DNA of 19,167 nt from Abditibacteriaceae bacterium (GTDB lineage Bacteria; Armatimonadota; Abditibacteriia; Abditibacteriales; Abditibacteriaceae), in the NCBI GenBank assembly GCA_031372065.1, contig JANMKN010000077.1, forward strand, positions 1 to 19,167, in the 5' to 3' direction. The notes under the pieces were generated by a model. It was not told the DNA's origin, searched no databases, and saw only the letters and a program-made list of their open reading frames with translations. Below are positions 1,888 through 19,073 of the stretch, piece by piece. Every line of letters starts with the position of its first letter. Position 1 is the first letter of the stretch. The position numbers and the translations under genes were made by a program.

Positions 1888-4014
1888 ATGTCCCTTTTGT
1901 CCCGTTTGGATCGGGTTCGTAGCAAAGATGCCTCTTTGGAAAATGCAGACGAAGTCGAAGCCGTCGAAGGTGCTGCACCAGCCTTAGGCGAGGGTGAAAC
2001 AACTCCGCCCCAATTAACTGCGCCCGGTGAGGAAGGCGCGAGTGTCGTTCGCGCCGAAGGCCGCGAGGCTCTTGGCAGCCCACGTATTTCACAAACAATC
2101 GCTACCATGCAAGGCATGGACGCGGTGGAAGGTGTGCCCGAAAGCGAAGATGAAATGCGGCGCTACTATCGCCACAAGCACATGATTTTCAATGAAGTGC
2201 TGGGGGCGGTAGATCAGCGTTTGTGGCAACAGCCGCAACGTGAATTGATTCGCAGCATTTTAGAAAAGGCGATTGATAAAGCCATCGCCGGAGCCAGCCT
2301 GACCATCACGCGCCACGAGCGCACTTGGCTGGTGACTGAGTTCCTCCATGAAGTGGCTGATTTTGGCCCGCTCACGCCCTTTTTGGATGATGCCGCGATC
2401 ACGAAAATCATGGTTGAAGGCTCCAACGAAGTCATCATTGATCGTCTGGGGCAAAATGAGACGACGCCTGTTTCCTTCCGGGATAACGATCACCTTTTAG
2501 GGCTGATTCATCGCATTGCGGGCATTGTGGGCAGCCGCCTTGATCCCAAAGTGCCGTTGCTTGATCGTCCTTTGCCCGACGGCGGACGCGTGCGCGCCAA
2601 AGTGCCGCCGTTGTCGCCACATCCCTCACTTTCCATCGAAAAAACAACGGGCAACCCGTTTGAAGCCCTGCGCCGCGCACAGGCTCAGGAACAACGCCCC
2701 GAATCGGCGCCTTTTGGTGCTTTGCGTGAACGAATTCAGCAAAAACTGATTCAGGAACTTGATCGCTCGGTTATGGCGGCGACCAATCCCGACCAAATGC
2801 GTAGTCAAGTCGAAGATATGATCAATCAGGTGATGCATGAAGAGCGCATTGCCATGTCACGCGCCGAACGAGCTTCGTTAGTTGTCGAATTGATTCATGA
2901 AATCGTGGGCCTCGGCCCGCTGGAACCGCTATTGAATGACCCCGAAGTGGACGAAATCATGGTCAACGGTGCCGACGCGATTTATGTGGAACGACACGGC
3001 AAGTTGACGCTGACAAATCAGCGTTTTCGTGACAATCAGCACGTCATGCAAATTGTTGAACGCATCATTGCTCCACTGGGTCGCCGTGTAGATGAAAAAA
3101 CGCCTTATGTGGATGGCCGTTTGCGTGATGGTTCGCGTTTTCATGCCATTATTCCGCCCTTGGCACTGGCTGGCGCCACGTTAACGATTCGCAAATTCGC
3201 CAAAGACCCGTTCACCATGACGGACTTGATTAACTTCAACACGATTACGCGAGAAGCCGCGCAGTTTTTGCAAGCCTGTGTTGAGGCGCGGTTGAACATT
3301 GTGGTGTCGGGTGGCACCGGTTCTGGCAAAACCACTTCGCTGAACGTGTTGTCGTCGTTTATTCCTTCTAATGAGCGCATTGTGACCATCGAAGACGCAG
3401 CGGAATTGCAGTTGCGTCAAGATCACGTTGTCCGTTTGGAAACGCGCCCGCCCAACATCGAAGGCGCAGGAGCAATTACCATTCGCGATTTGGTGCGAAA
3501 CTCGCTTCGTATGCGCCCAGATCGCATTGTGGTCGGCGAATGTCGCGGTTCCGAAGCGTTGGATATGTTGCAAGCAATGAACACGGGGCATGACGGTTCT
3601 TTGACCACCGGTCACTCGAACTCGCCGCGTGACATGATTAAGCGTTTGGAAACCATGGTAATGATGGCCGGTTTCGACTTGCCGATGCGCGCTATCCGCG
3701 AGCAAATTGCGATGGCTGTGGATGTCATTGTGCATCAGTCGCGTATGAGAGATGGCACGCGCAAAATCACGGCGATTACCGAAATCGCTGGCATGGAAGG
3801 CGATGTTATTACCACGCAGGATGTGTTCTTGTTTGAACAGGAATATATTGACGATGCAGGCAAAATTCATGGGCGCTTGCAGCCTACTGGCTTGCATCCC
3901 AAGTGCTACAATCAGATTTTGCACTCTGGTGTCAAACTGGCCTCAGATGTTTTCGTGCCGCGAGGCTTTGCTGATGCAGTTACTCCCAAAGCGCGTATCA
4001 TGGGCGGACGTTGA
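1888..4014 (+). CDS. cpaF: Tad/Flp pilus assembly ATPase CpaF/TadA with duplicated N-terminal domain
   Basis: [21 protein letters not shown], Walker A GGTGSGKT, Asp box [44 protein letters not shown] at 1877-1881. Followed by tadB and tadC. Confidence 0.96.
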
Positions 4015-4017
4015 TAA

Positions 4018-4066
4018 ATTTTGAATTTTTAATTGTTCGAAATTAAAAATTCAAAATCAAAAATTC
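4018..4066. repeat. AT-rich heptamer-derived inverted repeat (17-bp perfect stem, 6-nt loop) plus extra heptamers
   Basis: attttgaatttttaatt (4018-4034), loop gttcga, aattaaaaattcaaaat (4041-4057), then further aaa(a)t(t)c-type units. Confidence 0.85.
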
Positions 4067-4074
4067 TTACTGCC

Positions 4075-5109
4075 ATGGAAACCTTAATTATTGGTCTGGC
4101 TTTGTTTACCGGGATAGTGCTGTTTATCGCGGGACTGATGCAGGGGCCACAGGAAGCGGAGGAAACCGCTGCTGAAAAATTGACGCGTGTGCGTGCCCGC
4201 CGCGATGAAATTTCGCCCGATGGTCAATCGGCCCGCGAAAAAGAAATTGATCGGGAATTTGCCAAACGCGAAGAAAAGCGCGTGCGCCAGCAACGGCGTG
4301 AAACCTTCGTGCCGGCGCTCAGTAAAGTCGCCATTTCGGTTCAAGTTTTCAGGCGCCTTGAAGAAGAGTTGTTGCAAGCCCGCTCTCCTTGGCGCGCCAT
4401 GGAATTGTTTGTTTTCAGCATTTTCGCGGCAATTGTTACCTTCATCATTCTAATAATGATGCATTTTCCCGTTTTTATTTCAGCGCCTATTGCGGTAGCC
4501 TGTTTTGGTTTGCCGTGGGCTTATGTGCGCCTCTTAAAAATGAAATATGCACGGCAATTTGAACAGCAACTGGCCGATACGCTGATGCTCATGGCGAATA
4601 GCCTGCGCGCCGGATTTTCGTTTTTGCAAAGTTTGGAAATGGTGTCGCGTGAAGCAATGCCGCCAGTAGCCGATGAATTTCAGCGTTTAACGCAGGAAAT
4701 TTCCATCGGTGTGCCAGTTAATCAGGCTTTGGAGAATATGGGCGCCCGTGTGCATTCTACTGACCTTGATCTCGTGATAACTGCCGTGTTAATTCAGCGC
4801 GAGGTTGGCAGTAGCTTGGCTGAAATTTTAGAAGTTATTTCCAGAGTCATTGGCGAACGCATTCGTATTCGCGGTGAAATTCGCACCCTCACGGCGCAAG
4901 GGCGCTTAACGGGCGCGATTTTAGGTTTTTTGCCGCTTTCGCTGGGCATAGCGATTCACTTCGTCGGCGCTTTAACCACGCCCAATGAACCATCGTTTGT
5001 GCAGCCCTTGTTGTCAACAATTCAAGGTAATTACTTGCTTGGCATTGGCCTCGCGCTGCAAGTCATTGGTTTCATCATCATCATGAAGATTGTGGACATT
5101 AAGGTTTAA
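4075..5109 (+). CDS. tadB: Tad pilus inner-membrane platform protein TadB (T2SS F family)
   Basis: N-terminal TM, FEQQLADTLMLMANSLRAGFSF, IQREVGSSLAEIL, IRTLTAQGRL and C-terminal TMs. ATG 4075 is preferred over TTG 4033, which lies inside the AT-rich inverted repeat. Confidence 0.93.
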   Translation: METLIIGLALFTGIVLFIAGLMQGPQEAEETAAEKLTRVRARRDEISPDGQSAREKEIDREFAKREEKRVRQQRRETFVPALSKVAISVQVFRRLEEELLQARSPWRAMELFVFSIFAAIVTFIILIMMHFPVFISAPIAVACFGLPWAYVRLLKMKYARQFEQQLADTLMLMANSLRAGFSFLQSLEMVSREAMPPVADEFQRLTQEISIGVPVNQALENMGARVHSTDLDLVITAVLIQREVGSSLAEILEVISRVIGERIRIRGEIRTLTAQGRLTGAILGFLPLSLGIAIHFVGALTTPNEPSFVQPLLSTIQGNYLLGIGLALQVIGFIIIMKIVDIKV

Positions 5110-5174
5110 ATTTCGCTTGATTCGTTTGATGTTTGTCGCACAGTTTTAGGGGACTCCCAAAAGGATAGCTGTTC

Positions 5175-6086
5175 ATGCTCAATCGTTCACAGGCACGCGT
5201 AAAAACAATGGCTCAAGGCGACTCTCGCAAGGTGCGCCTGAATGAAGAAGATCCTTTGGCGCGTCTTACGCAGGATGCGCGTCGCCCAAGGCAGCAGCAA
5301 GGCTCGTTTTTCACGCGCGTGGCGCTGCCGTTTCTGGAAAAGATTGCCGCTCCCGGCAATATGCTGGCGCGCAATATCAATCGAGACGAAGTGCGGATGC
5401 GCTTAATGCGCGCTGGTTTTCCTGCCGGGTTGACCGCTGCGGCTTTTATTGGCTTGCAGATTTTTCTGACTTTTAGCGTCAGTTTACTTTTCTTGCTTTG
5501 GGTTCCGATTTTAGAAAGCGTTTTCGGTAGTTATCTGCCGTTTTGGTTTAGCGGCCCCGTTGCGGCTGTTTTGGGTTTGATTTACGGCTATAAAGCACCT
5601 GAAATTTGGGTAAACATGGTCACGCGCCGGCGCCAACAGGAAATACAAAGCGTGCTGCCCGATATGATTGACCTCATCACCGTGTCGGTGGAAGCCGGGT
5701 TGAGTTTATATGGTGCCATTCAGCGCATTTCGGCGCGTTTCGATAACCCACTCAGTGAGGAATTTGAACGCGCCTTGCAAGAAGTGCGATTGGGGCGCTC
5801 TAATATCGAATCCATGCGCGATTTAGCGCGCCGCGTGGACGTGCCCGATTTGTCGTCGTTAATTTCGGCGATTGTGCAAGCCGATATGCTTGGTTTGGCG
5901 ATTGCCAACGTTTTGCGCGTGCAAAGCGAACGTTTGCGCGAAAAGCGCTCTCAGCGCGCTCGCGAAGCGGCTCAAAAAGCGCCGATTAAAATGGTGATTC
6001 CGCTGGTGTTTTTCATTTTTCCGGCGTTGTTTATTGTCATTTTAGGCCCGGCGCTTCTCAAAATTGCAGCCACAAGCGCGTTTTAA
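5175..6086 (+). CDS. tadC: Tad pilus inner-membrane platform protein TadC (T2SS F family)
   Basis: LPDMIDLITVSVEAGL, LRVQSERLREKRSQRAREAAQKAPIKMVIPLVFFIFPALFIVILGPA. SD AAGGA at 5161-5165. Confidence 0.94.
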   Translation: MLNRSQARVKTMAQGDSRKVRLNEEDPLARLTQDARRPRQQQGSFFTRVALPFLEKIAAPGNMLARNINRDEVRMRLMRAGFPAGLTAAAFIGLQIFLTFSVSLLFLLWVPILESVFGSYLPFWFSGPVAAVLGLIYGYKAPEIWVNMVTRRRQQEIQSVLPDMIDLITVSVEAGLSLYGAIQRISARFDNPLSEEFERALQEVRLGRSNIESMRDLARRVDVPDLSSLISAIVQADMLGLAIANVLRVQSERLREKRSQRAREAAQKAPIKMVIPLVFFIFPALFIVILGPALLKIAATSAF

Positions 6087-6093
6087 AACGCAT

Positions 6094-7545
6094 TTAAGCC
6101 GCAGCTTCGGCAATTAGCGGCACTTCGCCAAAACGCGGCAAGCGCAATAGCAAAATAAATGTGACGGCCATCAAAACCAGATTGAAAATGAAGGTGTGCG
6201 AAAACGCGTAAGCGTAGCGCGCCGGTTCAGGCGCTGGGCCAAGGAGCGTGAAAAAGATGCTCCCGATAATGGCGATGCCGAGCGAACCGGAAATTTGTTG
6301 CCCTGTTGTTAAAACGCCCGAAGCCGTGCCCGCAAAATGCGGCGCGATGCCACGCAACACCACACCGCTGAGTTGGGGCACTAAAAGTCCTTGCCCGAAG
6401 CCGTAAATGGCAATCGGCGCCCATAAATCGCGTGGCGATAGCGCAACGCCGCGCGTTTGCATCAAAAAAATCAGCCACAGCGCGCCCGCTATCATAATCA
6501 ACACTCCAGCCTGTAACAGTCGTGTGCCCAATTGGTCAGCCATGCGCAAGGCATAAAGCGACGCTAATAAAAAGGCCAACGACAGCGGCGCGAAAGTTAA
6601 TCCGGCAACTTTGGGCACTAAACCCATGCCGTCTTGCAAGAATAAAGTCAGCATTAACGCAAATGAACTCATGCCCATGAAGGTGGACATCATACACAGC
6701 AAGCCAGCCACGAAATTGGAGTCTTGGAACAAGTTCAGGTCAATCAAAGGTGTGCCGCCGCGCTGCGAAAGCCGTGCTTCAAAAGCGACGAAACCGCGTA
6801 AAACAAATAGCGAAAAAGCCACGCACAGCCACGCCCACAGCGGCCAACCGGCTTCGCGGCCTTCAGCGAGCGGGAACACCAGCAAAAATAAGCCAGCGGA
6901 AACCAAGCCGACACCGATTAAATCGAGCTTTCGCGAGTGCGGCGCATAAGATTCGGGCACGAAGCGCGGTGTCAGCAATAGCGAAAGCAAGCCGACAGGC
7001 AGATTCACGAAGAATATCGGGCGCCATGACTGCCCCCCGAAATTCGCGCTGATTAAATAGCCGCCCAAAACGTTGCCAATAAACGAAGCGATGCCGACCA
7101 CAATGCCCAAAATGGCGAAGGCTCTGGCGCGCTCGTGCGGTGGAAAACTGACCTGAATAATGGAAAAAATCTGCGGCACCATTAAAGCCGCTGTGCCGCC
7201 CTGCAAAACGCGCGCAGCGATAAGAAAACCAGCCGAAGGTGCCAATCCGCACAGCAGCGAAGCGAGCGTAAAAGCCGCGACGCCGCACAAAAAAACGCGT
7301 CGCCGTCCATAAATATCGCCCAAGCGCCCGCCGGTTATCAGGCTGACGGCATAAGTTAAGCCATAACCGACAACGACCAATTGCAATTGGGCTGATGTGG
7401 CATTCAAATTGGTTTGAATGGCGGGTAGGGCGATGTTGACGATCAAAAAATCGAGAACAGCCAGAAAAAGTGCGCCCAAAATGACGGCCAAGGCCATCCA
7501 GCGGCGTGGATCAAGCGTTTCGGCAAATGAATTTGAAACAGACAT
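6094..7545 (-). CDS. MFS drug:H+ antiporter, DHA2 (EmrB/QacA-like, 14 TMS) family
   Basis: LDFLIVNIALPAIQ, motif A GGRLGDIYGRRR, LIAARVLQG, WRPIFFVNLPVG, about 14 hydrophobic segments. Confidence 0.93.
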   Translation of the reverse strand: MSVSNSFAETLDPRRWMALAVILGALFLAVLDFLIVNIALPAIQTNLNATSAQLQLVVVGYGLTYAVSLITGGRLGDIYGRRRVFLCGVAAFTLASLLCGLAPSAGFLIAARVLQGGTAALMVPQIFSIIQVSFPPHERARAFAILGIVVGIASFIGNVLGGYLISANFGGQSWRPIFFVNLPVGLLSLLLTPRFVPESYAPHSRKLDLIGVGLVSAGLFLLVFPLAEGREAGWPLWAWLCVAFSLFVLRGFVAFEARLSQRGGTPLIDLNLFQDSNFVAGLLCMMSTFMGMSSFALMLTLFLQDGMGLVPKVAGLTFAPLSLAFLLASLYALRMADQLGTRLLQAGVLIMIAGALWLIFLMQTRGVALSPRDLWAPIAIYGFGQGLLVPQLSGVVLRGIAPHFAGTASGVLTTGQQISGSLGIAIIGSIFFTLLGPAPEPARYAYAFSHTFIFNLVLMAVTFILLLRLPRFGEVPLIAEAAA

Positions 7546-7660
7546 AAAAAAGGCCGCGTCCTACGCTCTCTAAAGGAACATAAGGATTTGGCCGCCCTTA
7601 ACAGTGGCAACATCCTGCAACGAGTTCCCGGAAATTGCGTCGTGCAAAGATCGAATGCCT

Positions 7661-7669
7661 TGCTATAAT
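7661..7669 (+). promoter_or_regulatory. Extended -10 promoter element for rel
   Basis: TGCTATAAT is a perfect TGnTATAAT, 70 nt upstream of ATG 7739. SD-like GAAGGTG at 7724-7730. Confidence 0.6.
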
Positions 7670-7738
7670 GGCTTGTAAGGCTTTACGAAGCACTAAACGC
7701 ATTAATGCCACGATTAATGCCATGAAGGTGTCGCGAAC

Positions 7739-10282
7739 ATGAAGACGTTTTCCTCTTCCGGAACTTTGAACCCTATTTCAAAGCCAGCAGTTTCCACTTC
7801 CCCGCCCACTGTGACGCAAACTTCCAGCGGCCTTGTTGCATCGTCCGGCAAGTCCGCTGTTTTTAATGGCGAAGTGCCAGAGGCCAAGCACAACGATGCG
7901 CACAACGATGCGGCGACGCTCGAAATCATCGTAGATTCTGTCGCGGCTGAGTCGGTGGAAGTGGCGCAAGATGAAGTCGCCACAGAGGGCACTGGCTCCA
8001 CGCTTTCCAGCGAAGAGTTGGCCTTGCAAAAAATTACGGCGCTCATTGAAAATACCAAAGCGGCGCGCCCCGCAACCGATACGGGATTGTTAGAAGACGC
8101 TTACGCATTCGCGTATTTGCAGCACCAAACAATTCACGATCAGCATCGCAAAACGGGCGAAGCTTACATCGAACATCCGATTGCCGTCGCGGGCATTTTG
8201 GCCGAATTGGGCATGGACGACCCGACAATTGCTGCCGGATTGCTGCATGATGTGCCCGAAGATTGTGCTGTGCCTTACGAAGAAATTGTGCAGCGATTTG
8301 GTGCCGAAGTGGCGCAACTGGTCGAAGGCGTTACCAAACTGCGGCGCATTGATTTTACAGATAAACAAGAAAAACAAGCCGAAAATTTGCGCAAGTTGTT
8401 TTTAGCGATGGCGGGCGATGTGCGCGTGATTATTGTGAAATTGGCGGATCGCCTGCATAATATGCGCACGTTGGAAGGCATTAAAGACCCGCGTCGCACC
8501 GAAATCGCGCAGGAAACTTTGTATATTTTCGCGCCGATTGCGCATCGCCTTGGCATTTGGCGCATCAAGTGGGAATTGGAAGATCGCGCTTTTAAATACA
8601 CGCATTCCGACGAATATCGCCAGATTTACGAGAAAGTCAATCGCACCCGCGCCGAGCGCAGCGCCTTAGTGCAGCGTTGCATTCACACTTTGCAAGAGCA
8701 GTTGCAGGAACAAGGCATCGAAGCCGAAGTCACCGGGCGCCCGAAGCATTTTTATTCGATTTATCAAAAAATGATCAAGCAAGGTTTGAAGTTCGATGCA
8801 ATTCATGACCTTATCGCCTTGCGTGTCATTTGCAATTCAACATCCGATTGTTATCAAGCGCTGGGCATCGTGCATAATTCGTGGCAAATGGTGCCGGAAA
8901 TGTTTTTTGATTATGTCGGAATGCCAAAGCCAAATGGTTATCAGTCGTTGCACACCAAAGTGTTAGTGGCGGGCGGCGATGTGATTGAAGTGCAGATTCG
9001 CACCAAGGAAATGCACCGCGACGCCGAATTTGGCATCGCGGCGCACTGGCGCTATAAACAAGGTGACAAGCCCGCGCAAAATTGGGGCGATAAACTGCGT
9101 TGGCTGCGTTTGGTTTTGGAAATAGATTCCGACACGACGGGAAATGCACGCGAGTTTTTGGATTCGCTCAAATTAGACGTTTCCAACGAGCAGATTTTTG
9201 CCTTTACGCCCAAAGGCGACGCGATTTATATGCCGCAAGATTCGTCGCCGGTTGATTTTGCTTATCGCATTCACTCGGAAGTCGGCTTTCATTGCACCGG
9301 AGCGCGCGTCAACGGGCGCATTGTGCCGCTGTCCTACAAATTGCACAACGGCGACATTTGCGAAATTATCACCAGTCGCAGCAGCACCGGCCCCAAACAT
9401 GGCTGGCTCGATTGGGTTGTCACGCCGCACGCCAAGAATCGCATTCGCAATCACCTTAAGCGCCAGAATTTCGACGAAAATTTCCGCGAAGGCGTGACGC
9501 GTTTAGAAAAAATCGCCCAAGCGGAGCGCCTAAAACTTGGCCCGCCAGCGGACAATGATGCCATTAAAGCCATCGCTCACGCGATGAATTACAAAAGCGC
9601 CGAAGATTTGATTGCGGCTATTGGTTACGGCGATCAATCGGCGGAAAATGTCATCAACAAAGTGCGCGCCGAAACCAAAGAAACCAAGCCTGCGGCCAAA
9701 CCACGCTTAATCGGCGCGCAAGATGACAATTTATCAGGCTCCGCACGGCGTTTGATGGATCGCAAGGTCAATTTAATGACCGATATGCCCGATTTGTCCG
9801 GCACATTGGAATTTTCCATTCCCGCGACGGGCGAAACATCTGGGCACGGTTCGGCGGGCGAACACAAAGATTTGTTGTATTCCTTGGCGCGTTGTTGTTC
9901 GCCGATTGCGGGCGATGAAGTGTGTGGCTACGTCACGCGCGGGCGCGGCGTGACCGTGCATCGCGCCGATTGCGCCAACTTGAAACAATACGAAGAAAAA
10001 GAGCCGAACCGTTTGATGAACGTGCGCTGGATCGGTCAAAGCGACAAGCCTTTTTCGGCGCTGATTGGCATGGAATGTATGGATCGCGCGGGCCTTTTAC
10101 ACGATGTCACCGGCATAATCGCGACGCGCGGCGTTAATATCTGTGGCGTGAACACTTATCCGCTGAAAAACAGCCGCGCCCGATTAAATATCGCCGTCAC
10201 GATTTCCGATTCGCAAAAATTAACGGATTTGATGAATGCCTTGCGCTCGGTTCCCGGCGCCGTTGAAGTGCATCGCGTTTAA
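7739..10282 (+). CDS. rel: Long RSH bifunctional (p)ppGpp synthetase/hydrolase Rel
   Basis: Hydrolase HPIAVA, LLHDVPED, KLADRLHNMRTL; synthetase RPKHFYSIYQKM, NGYQSLHT, EVQIRT; TGS FTPKGD...DFAYRIHSEVG; Zn finger ARCCSP...HRADC; C-terminal ACT. Followed by dtd. Confidence 0.97.
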   Translation: MKTFSSSGTLNPISKPAVSTSPPTVTQTSSGLVASSGKSAVFNGEVPEAKHNDAHNDAATLEIIVDSVAAESVEVAQDEVATEGTGSTLSSEELALQKITALIENTKAARPATDTGLLEDAYAFAYLQHQTIHDQHRKTGEAYIEHPIAVAGILAELGMDDPTIAAGLLHDVPEDCAVPYEEIVQRFGAEVAQLVEGVTKLRRIDFTDKQEKQAENLRKLFLAMAGDVRVIIVKLADRLHNMRTLEGIKDPRRTEIAQETLYIFAPIAHRLGIWRIKWELEDRAFKYTHSDEYRQIYEKVNRTRAERSALVQRCIHTLQEQLQEQGIEAEVTGRPKHFYSIYQKMIKQGLKFDAIHDLIALRVICNSTSDCYQALGIVHNSWQMVPEMFFDYVGMPKPNGYQSLHTKVLVAGGDVIEVQIRTKEMHRDAEFGIAAHWRYKQGDKPAQNWGDKLRWLRLVLEIDSDTTGNAREFLDSLKLDVSNEQIFAFTPKGDAIYMPQDSSPVDFAYRIHSEVGFHCTGARVNGRIVPLSYKLHNGDICEIITSRSSTGPKHGWLDWVVTPHAKNRIRNHLKRQNFDENFREGVTRLEKIAQAERLKLGPPADNDAIKAIAHAMNYKSAEDLIAAIGYGDQSAENVINKVRAETKETKPAAKPRLIGAQDDNLSGSARRLMDRKVNLMTDMPDLSGTLEFSIPATGETSGHGSAGEHKDLLYSLARCCSPIAGDEVCGYVTRGRGVTVHRADCANLKQYEEKEPNRLMNVRWIGQSDKPFSALIGMECMDRAGLLHDVTGIIATRGVNICGVNTYPLKNSRARLNIAVTISDSQKLTDLMNALRSVPGAVEVHRV

Positions 10283-10291
10283 TTTGTCTTT

Positions 10292-10322
10292 TTGTCGGGG
10301 CGAGGTATACCTTGCCCGACAA
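10292..10322. repeat. GC-rich REP-like hairpin just after the rel stop
   Basis: ttgtcggggcgagg-tata-ccttgcccgacaa, with one bulge and one G-U pair. Confidence 0.6.
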
Positions 10323-10406
10323 TTTGGCGCAAAAGCATTTCTCGCCGACAAAATGCTGCTTTGGCAGGTTTTTTGGCGTTTTTTGTTCGTAAGAGTGCAT
10401 TTTGCG

Positions 10407-10668
10407 CTTGAAATATGGCTTCTCAGCTTGAAATATAGCTTCTCAGCTTGAAATATGGCTTCTCAGGTTGAAATATAGCTTCTCAGCCTGAAATATGGCT
10501 TCTCAGCTTGAAATATGGCTTCTCAGCCTGAAATATGGCTTCTCAGCCTGAAATATGCACCCTCACAGTTGAAAGACGGCTTCCCGGCTCGAAAATTGGC
10601 TTCTCAGCTTGAAAATCGCACCCTCACGGTTGAAAATTGGCTTCCCGACCTGAAAATTGGTATCATGG
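10407..10668. repeat. Tandem array of about 13 units of 20 bp (two of 21 bp), consensus cttgaaatatggcttctcag
   Basis: Seven near-identical units at 10407-10546, followed by six diverged units. Confidence 0.95.
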
Positions 10669-10721
10669 GGCGAAAGATTGCAAATTAACTCAAAACTCTC
10701 AATTCCAAATTCTTCACTCTC

Positions 10722-11159
10722 ATGAAAGCTGTCATTCAACGCTGTCACCGCGCCAAAGTGGAAGTCGAAGGCAAAATTGTCGGCGAAATCGGCGCCGGTT
10801 TGACGATTTTTTTAGGTGTAGCGAAGGGCGATGACGAAGCCGCCGCCGAAAAATTAGCGCGCAAGATTGCTACGCTGCGCATTTTTAATGATGACGAAGG
10901 CCGCTTTAATCGCTCGATTTTAGATATTGGCGGCGACGCCTTGGTTATTTCCAATTTCACGCTTTGTGGCGATACAAAAAAAGGCACGCGACCTAATTTT
11001 ACGCAGGCGGCGCCACCGGACGAGGCAAATCAACTTTATCAAGCCTTTGTTACACTGCTTCGCGGCCAAAAAGTGCCGGTAGAAACTGGCATTTTTGCGG
11101 CTATGATGAACGTCTCTGTCGAAAACGATGGACCAGTCACGATCATTCTGGAGGCGTAG
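10722..11159 (+). CDS. dtd: D-aminoacyl-tRNA deacylase
   Basis: MKAVIQR, LRIF, SNFTL (SQFTL-like), KGTRPNF, NDGPVT (Gly-cisPro). Classical position downstream of rel. Confidence 0.97.
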   Translation: MKAVIQRCHRAKVEVEGKIVGEIGAGLTIFLGVAKGDDEAAAEKLARKIATLRIFNDDEGRFNRSILDIGGDALVISNFTLCGDTKKGTRPNFTQAAPPDEANQLYQAFVTLLRGQKVPVETGIFAAMMNVSVENDGPVTIILEA

Positions 11160-11351: not shown

Positions 11352-12557
11352 ATGCAAAGCTCGCTGATTCGCATTTTGCCGGCCTGTCTGACCGAACCAT
11401 TGCCTGACGGTTGGGAAAAGGCGCCTACCGGCTATGTGATTGAACCCATGCCAGAAGTTGAGGCGCCAGAGGCCGTTATTATATCGCTTCGGGCTACGGA
11501 AGCCGATTTATTGCTGCTTGATGGCGATAAACCCGGCATAGATGCCTTCACCTTAACAGAAGCCGTCTTGGCTGCGTTGCCGAATGTGGCGGTTGTTATT
11601 CTTTCCAGTGATAGTTCGCCTGACCGCTTGCGCCGCGCTATGCTGGCGGGCGTCGAAGAGTATCTCATCAAGCCGTTAGACGCTGTGGCAATGCGCGACG
11701 CCATTATCGCCGTGGCCTCGCATCGCACTTTACGCGTGGTGCAGGATAATGTGGAAGCCAGTCCCACGCCCGATGGTGGTGGAATCGTGGTTGGCATTGT
11801 TTCGGGAAAAGGCGGTTTGGGCAAAACCACAATAGCAACGAACTTGGCCGCCATCGTCGCGAAAACGCCGGGGCGCACGGCGGCCTTGGTAGGATTGGAA
11901 TCGGGCGATGCTTCGGTTTTGTTGTCGCTGCAACCAAAACTGGGATTATTGGACATGGCGGGCGCCGCTTATGACGAAACGGCTTTTAAACCCGAATGGT
12001 TGACCCATTTCACTTCCATTCACCGCACAGGCATTCAATATTTCACATGGCAGGGCATTTCCACGCAGGCGCCCGAAGGCATTCCCGACGATTTTTTCTC
12101 TAACACTTTTGAAATGTTCCGGCGCACTTTTTCGGCGACCATTGTAGATTTTCCATTGTTGTCACCCGAAGAAGCGCAGACTTCACTGCCGCTGGTAGAT
12201 ATAATTGTGGTAGTTTCGTCGTCGTCGGATTTGCTGGCGCTGAAGGCGACCAAATCGTTTTTAGAAATGGTGCCGCCGGAAATTGAGCAGCGTGTGCGTA
12301 TTATCATTAACCGGGCCGATGCCACGGATATGATCAGCCGCGATGATTTTGAAAAAACGCTCAACACCAAAGTTTTAGCGACGCTGCCGAATCAGCCGCA
12401 AATTGCATCGGCGGCTATCAATATGGGTTCGCCTTTCGCGCTGACACAAAAGGACAGCGAACTGGCGATCAACCTGCGCGTAATCGCGCAACGCTTATTT
12501 AAACTGCCAGCCGAAGTCGAAGAAAAACCCAAGCGTCGTTTCATGCTCTTTTCTTGA
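11352..12557 (+). CDS. cpaE: Tad pilus localisation protein CpaE/TadZ (receiver-like domain plus MinD/ParA-like ATPase)
   Basis: REC-like LLLLDG...RRAMLAGVEEYLIKP; deviant Walker A SGKGGLGKTT; TIVDFP; IIINR; AINMGSPF. Confidence 0.9.
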   Translation: MQSSLIRILPACLTEPLPDGWEKAPTGYVIEPMPEVEAPEAVIISLRATEADLLLLDGDKPGIDAFTLTEAVLAALPNVAVVILSSDSSPDRLRRAMLAGVEEYLIKPLDAVAMRDAIIAVASHRTLRVVQDNVEASPTPDGGGIVVGIVSGKGGLGKTTIATNLAAIVAKTPGRTAALVGLESGDASVLLSLQPKLGLLDMAGAAYDETAFKPEWLTHFTSIHRTGIQYFTWQGISTQAPEGIPDDFFSNTFEMFRRTFSATIVDFPLLSPEEAQTSLPLVDIIVVVSSSSDLLALKATKSFLEMVPPEIEQRVRIIINRADATDMISRDDFEKTLNTKVLATLPNQPQIASAAINMGSPFALTQKDSELAINLRVIAQRLFKLPAEVEEKPKRRFMLFS

Positions 12558-12906: not shown

Positions 12907-15861
12907 ATGATTAAGCCGACCCCTGCGCGGCCCCGCACCTCAGAATGTGTATCTCGCGGTGCTGCGCCCCCGACTTCCGGCAGTTCCCCTGCCGATGCTT
13001 CCGCTATGAAAATGCTTGACTCCCTCGCGACTGAAGAACCCTCGAACGTGCCTCTTGCGTTCGACCTGCGTGCGGCCCGCACTGATCGTTTAGCGGCGCT
13101 GTGCCTGCTGCTGGCCTTGTGTGGCCCCACTGCTTTTGGGGTGTTGACCGCTGCGGGCACGGATAGCATGGTGTATGCCTCGTTACCGGGCAAGACTCTG
13201 GGCAAAAAACAAGTCTGCAAGATTGCTCCTGCCACTGCATTAAATGCGTTGGCGCCCGCAGTCAAGCCCGCGACCAAACCTGCGGGCTTAGAGCGTGTGG
13301 CCTTGACTGCGGCTGCGGCCTCACCCGATTGGCGCAGTGATTTACAATGGCTTTTGCCACGCGCTCGTGCCAACGATGGGGCGGATAACCCGCATCCCAC
13401 ACGCGCCATGTTTCCTTTGTCGCTGCTGGCAAAAGCCCGCTTGCCGGAAAACAGGACTTCTTCGGTATTGCGTGGCGTGGCCGTAGAGCGGCCAACCGGC
13501 ATTTCGCTCGCACGGCTCATCAACGATAATATGCCTGCCAAGACCGGGCCTCGCGGCGACGCCTCTATCAGCGCGTTGCCTTATGTATGGAAAAGCGGGC
13601 TTGTCAGCGTTCCGGCAGAAGGGCCAGTTCGATTCGCTGATGCCAAAGACGAAATCAAGGCACAATCTTCCAGCGGACAACTTCCTCCCTTGCTGCAAAA
13701 GGCCGATGGCACGCCTGATTTGTCGAAAATGGGCAAAGTAGTCAACGCCACCGCGTTGAAATTGCCTCCGCCCAGCCAGCCCCTGCCGCCTAAGTTGCAA
13801 GCCGCTTCGGTGCCTGCGGACACTAAATTCATTTCATCGTTGCCGCGTCTGGCACAAGCCGGGGCGCCCGGTAATGCAATGCCGGAGCCGAGTGCTTCGA
13901 ACCAAATTGAAGTGACGGTCAGCACCTTTGTGGTGCTAATTGCGCCTGATGATTTGCAAACTGTCGCTATCGCTGATCCTGATATTGCCGATGTCGTCGT
14001 GGTGAATTCGCGCGCGGTGCTGGTCAATGGCAAAAAACCGGGCGCGACCAGTCTGGTCATTGTTGACAAGAAAATCCGCCAATATCATGTGCAAGTTGTG
14101 CCTTCGACTGGCAACAAGCCGGGCGATATGGCCGATGCCGTGGCAGCAGCGATTAACCTTCCCAATGTGCAAGTGCGCGCCATTAATGGTTCGATTGCTT
14201 TGAGCGGGCAGGTTGCCAACGCGGACGAACAGAAAATGGCGGGCGACATTGCCAGTTTGTTTGCCAGCAAAGTGGTGAATCACACCCAGATTCGTCCCAC
14301 TGTGACAAACGAAGGCCCGCAAGTGCCGCTGGATGCGCAAATTAAAAACGCGATTCGCACGGGCGGCGTGGAAGTGCGCGTTTTGGGCAATACCGTCTTA
14401 TTGGAAGGTCAGGTGCCCAGCGAAGCACAACGCGCGACGGCTGAAGCTGTCGCCAAGGCTTTGGCGAAGGACATGGAAGTCCAGAACCTGATTACCTTGC
14501 CCGCGCTGCCACTGCCACCTATTCCAAAACTGCTCACGCTTGATCAGGTTAATGACACGCTGAAGCCAATGCAGGCGCCGCCTCCGGCCCCTGATATGCC
14601 CGGCGTGATCCCGGCTCCGCTGCAACCGATGACGCGCATCATAGCCCGTCAGGTAGCCGATCAAATCGTTCTCGAAGGCGTGGCGCTCACGGCTGACGAA
14701 ATCAAGCAGGCTCAAGAAATTGCCACGCGCACCGGTTTAAATGTGGTGAGTCGTGTCGTCATCGCTACGGCACCGCAAGCGCTTTCCGAGGATGTTCAGG
14801 CACTCAATGGTATTGCTACAGCGATCAATCGCTCCATTCCGGGCGCGAAAGTGATGGTCAGTGGTGGCAAAGACCGCTTGGTGCTGACCGGAACCATTCC
14901 TTCAACCACTTCGGCAGTGTTGGCCGAGCAAATCGCGCGCAGTTACAGCAAAAAAGTAGACAACCTTTTGCTCACGCCGCGCCCGCAACAAATTGATGTG
15001 GACATCACGGTTTTGGAAATCAACAAAACCAACTTGAAAAATTTAGGTGTCACATTCACCTCGCTACTCGACAGCACTGCCACGAATCCCACTGGTTTTG
15101 TTATCGGTCAAGGGGCGCCGGGCTTAGTCAGCGCCACGCCTGTCAGTCGCGCCATTCAATTTCTGTCGCCGATCCAGGCCGCGATTCGCGCCGAAGTGAC
15201 TAATGGCAACGCGCGCATTCTTTCCAATCCGCGCACCACAGTTTTGTCGGGCCGCACGGCGACTTTCAAAGTCGGCGGTGAAGTGCCCATTCCCGGCGTG
15301 TCCACGTTGTCAGGAAATGGCAATGCTACCACGACGATTATTTTCAAGCCGTTTGGCATTCTGATGGACGTGACGCCGGTTGTCAGCGATGATGGCGTCA
15401 TTACCGCGCAAATTCGCACCGAGGTTTCGCAACCCGACTTCACTATCGGTGTGGTGCCTCCCGGCGGCGGTGGCATTATTCCCGGCTTCTCGCAGCGTCA
15501 GGCGCAAACCGAAGTGACCATTGAGCCGGGCGGCACTTTGGCCCTTGGCGGACTGATTTCCAATAACATTACGCAAACGCGCCGCGAAATTCCTTTGCTC
15601 AGTAGAATTCCGGTTTTGGGCGCGCTGTTTTCAAGCAAGCGTTTCCAAAAGAACGAAACCGAACTGGTTATCTTCGTGACGCCGCGCTTGCTGGAAACTA
15701 AACTGAAAGATGGGCAGATGGCGCCCGCGCGTCCGTATTCGGTTGGCGAAAGCGAATCTGCCAAAGTGGTTATGGGCACCACCGGTATTCCGTCCTTTGT
15801 GGATAACACAGCCTTTTCGACTGCTGCCAGCGGTAGCGGCGGCAGCGGAGGCGGCCAGTAA
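12907..15861 (+). CDS. cpaC: Tad pilus secretin CpaC/RcpA with long N-terminal extension and four BON-like domains
   Basis: Pilus-secretin N domain IADPDIADVVVVNSRAVLVNGKKPGATSL; secretin core ARILSNPRTTVLSGRTATFKVGGEVPIP and IPLLSRIPVLGALFSSKRFQKNETELVIFVTP. SD AAGGAG at 12894-12899. Confidence 0.93.
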   Translation: MIKPTPARPRTSECVSRGAAPPTSGSSPADASAMKMLDSLATEEPSNVPLAFDLRAARTDRLAALCLLLALCGPTAFGVLTAAGTDSMVYASLPGKTLGKKQVCKIAPATALNALAPAVKPATKPAGLERVALTAAAASPDWRSDLQWLLPRARANDGADNPHPTRAMFPLSLLAKARLPENRTSSVLRGVAVERPTGISLARLINDNMPAKTGPRGDASISALPYVWKSGLVSVPAEGPVRFADAKDEIKAQSSSGQLPPLLQKADGTPDLSKMGKVVNATALKLPPPSQPLPPKLQAASVPADTKFISSLPRLAQAGAPGNAMPEPSASNQIEVTVSTFVVLIAPDDLQTVAIADPDIADVVVVNSRAVLVNGKKPGATSLVIVDKKIRQYHVQVVPSTGNKPGDMADAVAAAINLPNVQVRAINGSIALSGQVANADEQKMAGDIASLFASKVVNHTQIRPTVTNEGPQVPLDAQIKNAIRTGGVEVRVLGNTVLLEGQVPSEAQRATAEAVAKALAKDMEVQNLITLPALPLPPIPKLLTLDQVNDTLKPMQAPPPAPDMPGVIPAPLQPMTRIIARQVADQIVLEGVALTADEIKQAQEIATRTGLNVVSRVVIATAPQALSEDVQALNGIATAINRSIPGAKVMVSGGKDRLVLTGTIPSTTSAVLAEQIARSYSKKVDNLLLTPRPQQIDVDITVLEINKTNLKNLGVTFTSLLDSTATNPTGFVIGQGAPGLVSATPVSRAIQFLSPIQAAIRAEVTNGNARILSNPRTTVLSGRTATFKVGGEVPIPGVSTLSGNGNATTTIIFKPFGILMDVTPVVSDDGVITAQIRTEVSQPDFTIGVVPPGGGGIIPGFSQRQAQTEVTIEPGGTLALGGLISNNITQTRREIPLLSRIPVLGALFSSKRFQKNETELVIFVTPRLLETKLKDGQMAPARPYSVGESESAKVVMGTTGIPSFVDNTAFSTAASGSGGSGGGQ

Positions 15862-15918: not shown

Positions 15919-16989
15919 ATGAATCGCAACAATATGCTTTTAATGGGACTGGCGGTCTTTTTCGTCATTGGCGTGGGACTTACGGCCTATGTGTTAAAGG
16001 GACGAGGCAATTCCCAATCAACGCCTGTTGGCCCCGCGCCAACGCCAGCACCGGTGAAAACCTTTGTAGCTGCCAAAGACATCCCGCCACGCACTGTCAT
16101 CACGGCCAATATGCTGACCGAATCCACCGAAGCCAAGCCGACAGCGGGCGCAATCACCGATATGGATCAGGTCGTGGGAAAGTTGTCCGCCGAGCCAATT
16201 TATAAAGGTCAAGTGGTAAAATCCCGCATGACAACCGAGGAACTCGAACGCGTGATTCCGGCCTCGTTTGCCATACCGAAACAAGATCAGCAGAATTTGC
16301 GTGCCGTAGCGATTTGGGTTGACCCATTGCAAACCGCTGCCGGGCTGGTGGATAAAGGTGACCGCGTGGACATTATTGCGGTGCATAAATTAAAAATCAC
16401 CGGCAACAACAGCACGGGCGAAATCGCATCGGGCCGCACTATCGCTCAGGACTTGCAAGTTTTGGCCGTAGATCGCTCGTTAGAAGCGGCGACGAAGCCG
16501 GCATCGGCACCCGCTCCAAGCGCACCGGCGTCTACTCCTACTCCACCTCCGGCACCCACGCCGCCGCCGCAACCGGGACAGAGAACCTTTACGCGCGTGG
16601 TCGTGGCAGCGCCTCCTGAAATAGCGGAACGTCTGGTGGCGGCCAACACCACGGGTGAATTGCATATCACCATCCGCGACCCGCAAACTCGTGAAAATTT
16701 CCCCGTTTCCGGCGTGCGCGAATATCCAGCTAATCCGGTTGATCCTGTGGTGCTGAAAGTTCGCGATGCCGCTGTCGAGCGTCGCCTGAATAACATCAGG
16801 AAGCAGGATGAGCGGCGCTGGAAGATAATTGAGATGCAAGATGTCAAGCGCATGAATCCGGTTATTCCGCCACCTCAAATTGGGCCGATGAATACGGGTG
16901 GATTGCCTACGCCGCTTCCTACACCAGACATTCGCGAAATTACTGTGGTGCGTGGCACCGAGAAAACGCGTGTGATTGTGCCTCGTTAG
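15919..16989 (+). CDS. cpaB: Flp pilus assembly protein CpaB/RcpC
   Basis: N-terminal TM, SAF domain VAAKDIPPRTVITANML...VVGKLSAEPIYKG, RcpC domain RAVAIWVD...AGLVDKGDRVDII...LQVLAVD. SD AAGGAG upstream. Confidence 0.93.
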   Translation: MNRNNMLLMGLAVFFVIGVGLTAYVLKGRGNSQSTPVGPAPTPAPVKTFVAAKDIPPRTVITANMLTESTEAKPTAGAITDMDQVVGKLSAEPIYKGQVVKSRMTTEELERVIPASFAIPKQDQQNLRAVAIWVDPLQTAAGLVDKGDRVDIIAVHKLKITGNNSTGEIASGRTIAQDLQVLAVDRSLEAATKPASAPAPSAPASTPTPPPAPTPPPQPGQRTFTRVVVAAPPEIAERLVAANTTGELHITIRDPQTRENFPVSGVREYPANPVDPVVLKVRDAAVERRLNNIRKQDERRWKIIEMQDVKRMNPVIPPPQIGPMNTGGLPTPLPTPDIREITVVRGTEKTRVIVPR

Positions 16990-18835: not shown

Positions 18836-19073
18836 CATACCGTCTGTAGTCGCGCGCATATCGTCTGTGGTCGCACGCATATCGTCTGTGGTCGCATCCA
18901 TATCGGATATGTGAGCGATACCAAACGATATGCGTGCCATCCCAAACGATATGTGAGCGACCACAGACGATATGGATGCGACCACAGACGATATGCGAGC
19001 CATCCCAAACGATATGCGAGCCGTCCCAGACGATATGCGTGCCATACCAAGCGATATGCGAGCGACCACATGG
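18836..19073. repeat. 21-bp tandem array that inverts orientation at a dyad centred on 18905
   Basis: Three units catatcgtctgtggtcgcnnn (18836-18898), centre catatc-g-gatatg, then eight reverse-orientation units starting gatatg at 18906, 18927, 18948, 18969, 18990, 19011, 19032 and 19053. Confidence 0.95.

Follow-up and report, generated by a model that had tools for sequence, protein, structure and literature searches.

The analyzed window, which covers 19,167 nucleotides of an Abditibacteriaceae bacterium, harbors a cpaF/tadA gene whose product contains two modules, each made of a three-helix bundle (3HB) and an NTD, in front of one ATPase domain. Sequence comparisons indicate that this double CpaF is genuine and old, that it has been under selection, and that it is a Tad motor variant whose platform shows matching alterations; a mechanism for it is proposed below. 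The parts altered in this lineage are central to the inversion model of the motor, as the 3HB+NTD is doubled, the N-terminus of TadB is longer and a TadC helix has been dropped in most families. The retraction-face residues are kept despite these changes of module and platform, which makes the lineage a natural test case for inversion and for gating.

Architecture of the double CpaF

Pfam and NCBIfam searches placed the 708-aa protein among the CpaF/TadA-type ATPases, with two stretches matched. The nearest solved structure was the Caulobacter CpaF 9e24 (E 1.6e-136, phmmer against PDB), and the best Foldseek matches of the double CpaF were also CpaF structures. The double CpaF is homologous to the Tad (type IVc) motor CpaF/TadA and holds its 3HB-NTD-ATPase core, and its parts and neighboring genes are listed in Table 1. 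The nearest named homologs were obtained from Abditibacteriaceae, Ca. Fervidibacter and Armatimonadota, and the ESM Atlas returned generic T2SSE clusters only. The NCBI taxonomy keeps Abditibacteriaceae and Ca. Fervidibacter in separate phyla, and GTDB unites them as Armatimonadota.

Table 1. Positions of the double CpaF, its parts and the other Tad genes in the window (aa numbers are those of the 708-aa protein).
Feature	Position (nt)	Strand	Remarks
cpaF/tadA, 708 aa	1888..4014	+	IDR-(3HB-NTD)1-linker helix-(3HB-NTD)2-ATPase; PF00437 matched in 2 stretches
N-terminal 'MSLLSRL' helix and disordered region, aa 1-86	1888..2145	+	pLDDT mostly <50
Copy 1 three-helix bundle, aa 87-157	2146..2358	+	model helices 87-107, 118-136, 142-157
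Copy 1 NTD, aa 158-258	2359..2661	+	C-terminal end is the conserved NPF
Short helical connector, aa 259-273	2662..2706	+	from the AlphaFold2 model
Copy 2, canonical 3HB+NTD, aa 274-442	2707..3213	+	by comparison with CpaF 9e24
C-terminal ATPase domain, one per chain	3214..4011	+	catalytic residues invariant in 45/45
tadB/cpaG	4075..5109	+	likely start 4075, ORF open from 4033; longer, charged cytoplasmic segment after TM1, ~4180-4360
tadC/cpaH	5175..6086	+	without the usual N-terminal transmembrane helix
cpaE/tadZ	11352..12557	+	receiver and ParA/MinD-like domain
cpaC/rcpA	12907..15861	+	secretin with BON domains
cpaB/rcpC	15919..16989	+	TIGR03177 above cut-off

The original prediction held that aa ~92-258 are repeated as aa ~276-442, and the two stretches indeed align with 57 of 167 residues identical (34%, E 1e-33), with all the motif pairs quoted there, SIEKT against TIRKF included. 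A self-alignment check by hhalign, in which the copy-1 profile was compared with copy 2, gave a probability of 99.9 over 159 columns, and the Smith-Waterman score between the copies was 253, against 31 ± 6 (maximum 67) for 1000 shuffles. The protein has a single P-loop only (GSGKT, K481), as had been claimed, and the module borders held approximately, with helix 1 of copy 1 running from about aa 87 (position 2146), slightly ahead of the claimed 2161. At the DNA level the NTD parts of the copies share just 166 of 324 positions (51%), so a recent duplication and a repeat created by the assembly are both excluded.

AlphaFold2 modelled the isolated copy 1 with a pLDDT of 94.1 and a pTM of 0.86. 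The best PDB match of this model was CpaF 9e24, residues 80-244 (Z 18.9, rmsd 3.0 over 164 residues), followed by a runner-up at Z 14.1, and Foldseek gave a TM of 0.78. Residues 80-244 of CpaF 9e24 are exactly its 3HB+NTD, and the fold expected for aa 92-258 was therefore recovered. Judged by these models, copy 1 is a complete, diverged 3HB+NTD module. In the full-length AlphaFold2 model, both copies show one order of elements, with three helices and a short fourth one ahead of two sets of three strands that have a helix between them; its global confidence was low (pTM 0.42), with no confident packing of copy 1 in the single chain.

The counterpart of aa 1-86 varies in relatives from ~35 to >500 aa. 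Among the longest N-terminal extensions seen is the 330-700-aa, Pro/Ala/Glu-rich and repeat-containing stretch found before copy 1 in genus g2 (L011-L018, L031, L033, L034). The spacing from module to module is constant at 173-180 aa in all 20 loci, and the short helix between the modules comes after an NP[FML] motif whose NP is invariant.

Residues kept and replaced in the two copies

Residues were counted in 82 copy-1, 81 copy-2 and 145 single modules, under the Caulobacter CpaF numbering taken from the phmmer alignment to CpaF 9e24; these sets include near-identical relatives, so the figures in Table 2 are counts of sequences and not of events.

Table 2. Occurrence of CpaF module residues (Caulobacter numbering) in the sequences compared.
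Residue	Copy 1	Copy 2	Single modules
R217	0/82	81/81	145/145
R241	1/82	81/81	140/145
F243	1/82	81/81	139/145
R/K205	0/82	81/81	145/145
E209	3/82	81/81	130/145
D208	82/82	81/81	139/145
P212	82/82	81/81	144/145
R206	75/82	81/81	141/145
G204	67/82	81/81	144/145

The stretch made up of copy 2 and the ATPase domain aligns with the Caulobacter CpaF from one end to the other. Both R217 and R223 are present in 81 of 81 copy-2 sequences, and under the own numbering of the 708-aa protein copy 2 contains D409, R411, R417 and R435 together with the loop-8 sequence G398-R-R-x-D402-E403. In the ATPase domain, K287, E312, E331, G334, R347, E357, R359, H382 and R387 (Caulobacter numbering) were found in 45 of 45 sequences. 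In the own numbering, the Walker A and B motifs, the Asp box, the His box, the R541 finger and the pore-loop residues E525 and G528 are invariant in the same 45, as is the retraction-face R581, with P580 in 42/45 and the C-terminal motif residues R619, D622, G623 and R625 in 44/45. The double CpaF thus keeps the motor residues named for the proposed inversion (P386-R387, the beta13-beta14 turn and an intact C-terminal motif) and the residues of a Tad motor (Walker A K287, Asp box E312, Walker B E357, His box H382, and R217, R223 and R347). By its conserved residues, the ATPase core is intact, and the copy-2 and ATPase domains would build a normal hexamer.

According to the accessible text of PMC12019362 and PMC11300603, the nucleotide arginines of CpaF are R217 and R223 in the NTD and R347 in the adjacent ATPase domain, with R217 and R223 engaging the phosphates and D215 steadying R347 of the neighbor. 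Copy 1 lost R217 in every sequence and kept R223 in 78/82, D215 in 79/82, G149 in 82/82 and H191 in 81/82, and it is followed by a helix and 3HB2 and not by an ATPase domain. It is diverged and very likely non-catalytic, as was first proposed. The earlier argument from arginines stood where nucleotide-binding arginines of the NTD are concerned and did not extend to the TIRKF arginine (R241), since the accessible parts of these papers name R217, R223 and R347; the loss of R217 is a stronger sign of a non-catalytic copy 1 than that of the TIRKF arginine.

Loop 8, with conserved G204, R205, R206 and D208, is the platform interface predicted from AlphaFold models in the accessible part of PMC12019362, and D208K abolished pili, with an expression caveat, in that of PMC11300603. 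These four residues occur in 67, 0, 75 and 82 of the 82 copy-1 sequences, respectively, and with R205 in none and E209 in three, the docking loop is kept only in part. The retention of D208 in copy 1 may be structural.

The canonical sheet residues M164, N225, I227, R241 and F243 are replaced in copy 1. Position 162 is K/R in 80/82 copy-1 sequences, against D/E in 144/145 single modules, and the changes of A/G216 to R/K, N225 to R and I/V227 to K/R were observed in 78, 77 and 73 of the 82, respectively. In the 708-aa protein's own numbering, copy 1 keeps G160-P161, the loop-8 residues R217, D219 and P223, D226 and R234, has P228 and E251 where Caulobacter R217 and R241 would stand, and carries the new basic residues K173, R227, R236 and K238. 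The basic patch has gaps, as families f5 and f33 are without D215, basic 216 and basic 225, and f18 is without basic 227; D208 and NP are present everywhere, including these families. In the copy-1 NTD, 35 of 102 columns are conserved at ≥90%. The net 3HB charge (-2.9 in copy 1, -3.0 and -3.6 in other modules) gave no separation. Distant families have H, N, T or R at position 241, which ruled out a K173-E251 charge swap as a universal feature. Together we infer that copy 1 cannot serve as a catalytic NTD, that its docking loop is partly kept and that its sheet face has been rebuilt, and the invariant new basic residues suggest another partner at least equally well.

Distribution, origin and the altered platform

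The double form was found in 22 of the 27 genomes of the Abditibacteriaceae-like family, a count in which one 63% complete genome (G010) is unassigned. The four family genomes without a double motor (G011, G015, G017 and G019, that of G011 a single contig) all belong to one genus. Two modules were observed in 24 of 41 related genomes, and in G022 the apparent deletion of copy 1 is a scaffold gap, the gene being split by a run of Ns. Across the phylum, the copy-1 profile matched at 1e-30 in 149 of 401 sampled genomes (49 families), a threshold also reached by single modules. Among the loci fetched, all 15 with high-scoring or twin matches contained two modules, one of them cut by a contig end, and all five controls contained a single module; the double motors confirmed in this way come from 10 families of the phylum.

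A general module profile gave 17,967 matches among 1.84 billion cluster representatives, and the best 150 of these were classified; double modules rank high in this list through their summed score, and diverged doubles below ~200 bits fall outside the reach of the best 150. Among the 150, two are NTD-NTD-ATPase proteins, both of the copy-1 type, five are NTD-NTD without ATPase, nine are whole-gene tandem fusions and 134 are one-module proteins, one of the latter being a copy-1 fragment. Three of the five ATPase-less proteins are fragments of the Abditibacteriaceae-like family, and the other two are a 163-aa fragment and a Ca. Riflebacteria protein outside the copy-1 clade. No NTD-NTD-ATPase protein outside the copy-1 type was found among the best 150 of the 17,967 clusters. 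The only match to a stand-alone copy-1 protein among 407 candidates of 100-321 aa is a fragment on a 1-kb contig, and the genome of the window itself contains none.

In the quick tree the copy-1 sequences formed one clade (29/29), and in the careful tree all 20 rows from 10 families did so with a support of 100/99. For NTD2+ATPase, a quick tree that included one mistranslated outgroup row and one truncated row gave 92 for 30 of 31 rows, and a careful tree without the faulty and other rows supported the double motors as one clade at just 25/79. The NTD2+ATPase backbone is poorly supported, so the single origin, which the sequences indicate for copy 1, relies on the copy-1 clade. The 15 copy-2 rows outside f5 and f33 were united at 97/91 and the matching copy-1 rows at 82/51, in partial support of an order in which the duplication came first and the TadC TM1 loss afterwards. 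In five close pairs, copy 1 gave a dN/dS of 0.02-0.09 and copy 2 one of 0.01-0.07, values which indicate that copy 1 is under purifying selection; at larger distances copy 1 is the faster-evolving of the two.

The genes tadB and tadC follow the double cpaF. The TadB segment from TM1 to a fixed anchor measures 59-92 aa in 30 double-type rows (28 genomes), or 59-75 aa when three rows with an additional hydrophobic stretch read as TM1 are set aside; the 13 single-type rows have 35-54 aa. TM1 of TadC is missing in 18 of 20 double loci, among them the window (5175-6086) and L021, L022, L025, L032, L033, L035, L051-L053 and L058-L065, whereas 12 of 13 single loci of the phylum have it, as do 6 of 7 from other phyla; the one exception in each of these two sets is due to a short ORF call. 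Both double loci in which it persists are from family f5, one of the families with the most degenerate copy 1. The platforms of double systems therefore differ at their N-termini, with a longer TadB and, in 18/20 loci, a TadC without TM1, and the absence of the helix that gates pilin access, as proposed in Caulobacter, is a notable feature by itself. The double-type tadC is missing in all four family genomes without a double motor (G011, G015, G017, G019) and the double-type tadB in the three examined, so the double motor and its platform were lost together; in G004, G012, G021 and G023 the two are unlinked and both are kept. Given the one origin of copy 1, the platform changes amount to one coincidence and not to statistical evidence of co-evolution.

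Most genomes of the family also carry an ordinary Tad motor and platform, which gives a built-in control and raises the question of how motors and platforms are paired. In the genome of the window, this second, ordinary cpaF-tadB-tadC set is on contig C248. Putative Flp-like ORFs, on contigs C169 and C170, and putative TadE-like ORFs elsewhere in the genome were picked up by a motif pattern. An MFS transporter, relA/spoT and dtd (6094-11159) separate cpaF-tadB-tadC from cpaE-cpaC-cpaB in the window, the order cpaB-cpaC-cpaE-cpaF-tadB-tadC occurs whole or in part in many relatives, with cpaE immediately 5' of the double cpaF in many of their loci, and the nicotinate phosphoribosyltransferase gene 5' of cpaF is constant in the family loci examined. 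The secretin ORF (12907-15861) codes for 984 aa; three BON matches were found in it, its N-terminal part is long and of low complexity, and its true start is probably downstream of 12907. Tandem repeats were observed between relA and dtd (10406-10614, a 20-bp unit x10.4) and after murJ (18836-19063, 21-bp units), and the Rfam search of the window gave no match. In L036 of G002 (7392-9407 and 3130-5407), tadB, tadC and relA each seem to be split by frameshifts, which are probably long-read assembly errors.

Possible roles of copy 1 and related architectures

The accessible text of PMC12019362 predicts contacts of the 3HB with CpaG's and CpaH's N-terminal helices, of which CpaH helix 1 would gate pilin access, and a preprint (bioRxiv 10.64898/2026.02.24.707734) proposes that the platform's N-terminal helices, on clashing with the 3HB, flip the hexamer between extension and retraction. 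Given these published contacts, the TadB and TadC changes fall where an extra module would sit. We favor, at a probability of about 0.45, a reading in which copy 1 gives the motor an additional, non-catalytic hold on the remodelled TadB/TadC platform that belongs to it. The copy-2 and ATPase domains would form the usual hexamer, and copy 1 would be tied through the short fixed helix to the start of 3HB2, so that six pseudo-NTDs might stand around the membrane-facing (extension) rim, the site of the predicted contact between the platform N-terminal helices and the 3HB. In that position they would grip TadB/TadC outside the catalytic cycle, which would keep the motor on its cognate platform, apart from the second Tad system of the cell, the ordinary one, and could favor one side of the extension/retraction switch or bridge it. 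The fold, the single origin, the dN/dS of 0.02-0.09, D208 in 82/82 copy-1 sequences, the remodelled N-termini of TadB and TadC and the joint loss of motor and platform are all consistent with such a contact. For the second TadB/TadC docking site put forward in the original prediction, D208, the altered platform N-termini and the joint loss lend indirect support. On the other hand, R205 and E209 are lost and loop 8 is only partly kept, f5 has a double motor and yet keeps TadC TM1 (2/20 loci), the orientation of copy 1 in the full-length model is of low confidence (pTM 0.42), and the interface in the cited papers relies on AlphaFold models, with the inversion model in a preprint.

A more doubtful reading makes copy 1 a regulatory input domain, whose basic sheet face would switch the motor by taking up a ligand that carries phosphate or an acidic partner, for example CpaE. 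It agrees with the basic K173, R227, R234, R236 and K238 around D226 (own numbering), fixed in copy 1, with the retention of D215 and R223, with cpaE immediately 5' of the double cpaF in many loci, and with CpaE dimers, which in the accessible part of PMC13170226 surround CpaF in situ and shift between states; other N-terminal add-ons of pilus ATPases, such as the FHA of class III CpaF, may be a parallel. However, the patch is not universal (f5, f33, f18), the shared face of its residues was derived from strand alternation and not from coordinates, no ligand motif was found in copy 1, and the TadB/TadC changes are left unexplained. Improbable, in our view, is an intramolecular brake or clamp on the neighbor's copy 2 or ATPase domain, which would hold the active sites or the extension face idle until displaced: the NTD fold with D215 and R223, which face the active site in CpaF, is kept while R217 is absent, and the linker is short, of constant length and with an invariant NP, but copy 1 is not confidently packed in the single-chain model (pTM 0.42), and the replacement of M164, N225, I227, R241 and F243 makes a copy 2-like contact with an ATPase domain unlikely. 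Still less probable is self-association of copy 1 into an additional hexameric tier stacked on the motor, the extra ring tier of the original prediction. Six copies per hexamer of a well-folded domain would be at hand, but in the accessible text of PMC12019362 CpaF oligomerizes through contacts of the NTD with the adjacent ATPase domain and not between NTDs, so a copy 1 without its own ATPase domain gives such a tier a weak basis, and a closed tier would lie, on the N-terminal face, over the pore into which the platform is predicted to reach. A copy 1 that has no function and persists as a relic, or that was produced by the assembly, is hardly credible, although the whole double system is missing in 4/27 family genomes and copy 1 shows the faster evolution over long distances. 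The 51% DNA identity between the copies, the same architecture in 24/41 relatives, the 35/102 NTD columns conserved at ≥90% and the run of Ns behind the apparent deletion in G022 argue against it, and the purifying selection (dN/dS 0.02-0.09) already largely refutes a relic.

How one motor performs both extension and retraction is debated in the literature, in which a 2024 paper invokes the disordered N-terminus and a 2025 paper disputes this. An unlikely extension of the platform contact is that the double CpaF represents a fourth Tad class, in which a catalytically dead NTD duplicate and a platform rebuilt with a longer TadB arm and a TadC lacking the putative gate helix might tether the hexamer during disengagement or a flip between its extension and retraction faces and act as a pivot for a reversible single motor.

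The Caulobacter crescentus CpaF (class II, IDR-3HB-NTD-ATPase; PDB 9e24, 8rjf) shares the catalytic, pore-loop and retraction-face residues with the double CpaF, as well as the setting, with tadB and tadC next and cpaE, cpaC and cpaB near. The double CpaF differs in its additional full 3HB+NTD without R217, R241 and F243, and its platform in a TadC without the N-terminal membrane helix and a TadB with a longer N-terminal segment. In the accessible text of PMC12019362, 292 CpaF orthologs were surveyed and fell into three architectures (core, IDR+core and FHA+IDR+core), each with one 3HB and one NTD, which the two 3HB+NTD modules of the double CpaF do not match. Class III CpaF (FHA-IDR-3HB-NTD-ATPase), as described there, likewise has a folded accessory domain N-terminal to the minimal motor, whereas the add-on of the double CpaF is a paralogous copy of its own 3HB+NTD. 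The double CpaF therefore adds an architecture missing from the published classification, and the unusual architecture claimed for it was confirmed, with none besides the copy-1 type among the best 150 of 17,967 clusters and none in the three classes of the accessible text. A duplicated CpaF NTD was not found in the literature searched by titles and abstract openings, with subscription papers mostly outside this scope, and six taxon names were absent from the accessible supplements of PMC12019362, whose ortholog list may give accessions only. Elsewhere among pilus ATPases, the N1D of PilB/GspE and MshEN are non-catalytic N-terminal domains that dock the ATPase on a membrane partner or bind a regulator; they have other folds, belong to other pilus classes and are not duplicates of the NTD (N2D).

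Whole-gene tandem CpaF fusions (P0054, P0055, P0057-59, P0061-63, P0065), which may be assembly artefacts, likewise have more than one NTD module per chain, but there an ATPase domain comes after every NTD, although the final one of P0054 is incomplete. They are built as NTD-ATPase x2 or x3 and, if real, would form covalent pseudo-hexamers. The Ca. Riflebacteria P0054 reaches 1605 aa, the P0055 form, of 1156 aa, has two cluster members of full length and one, from Anaerolineae, that is partial, and both Walker A motifs of P0061 deviate. Another Ca. Riflebacteria protein, P0110 (457 aa), carries two degenerate 3HB+NTD modules and no ATPase domain, and since it lies outside the copy-1 clade it is likely an independent duplication. 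P0135 and P0175 are CpaF fragments with an extra three-helix bundle alone ahead of a normal module.
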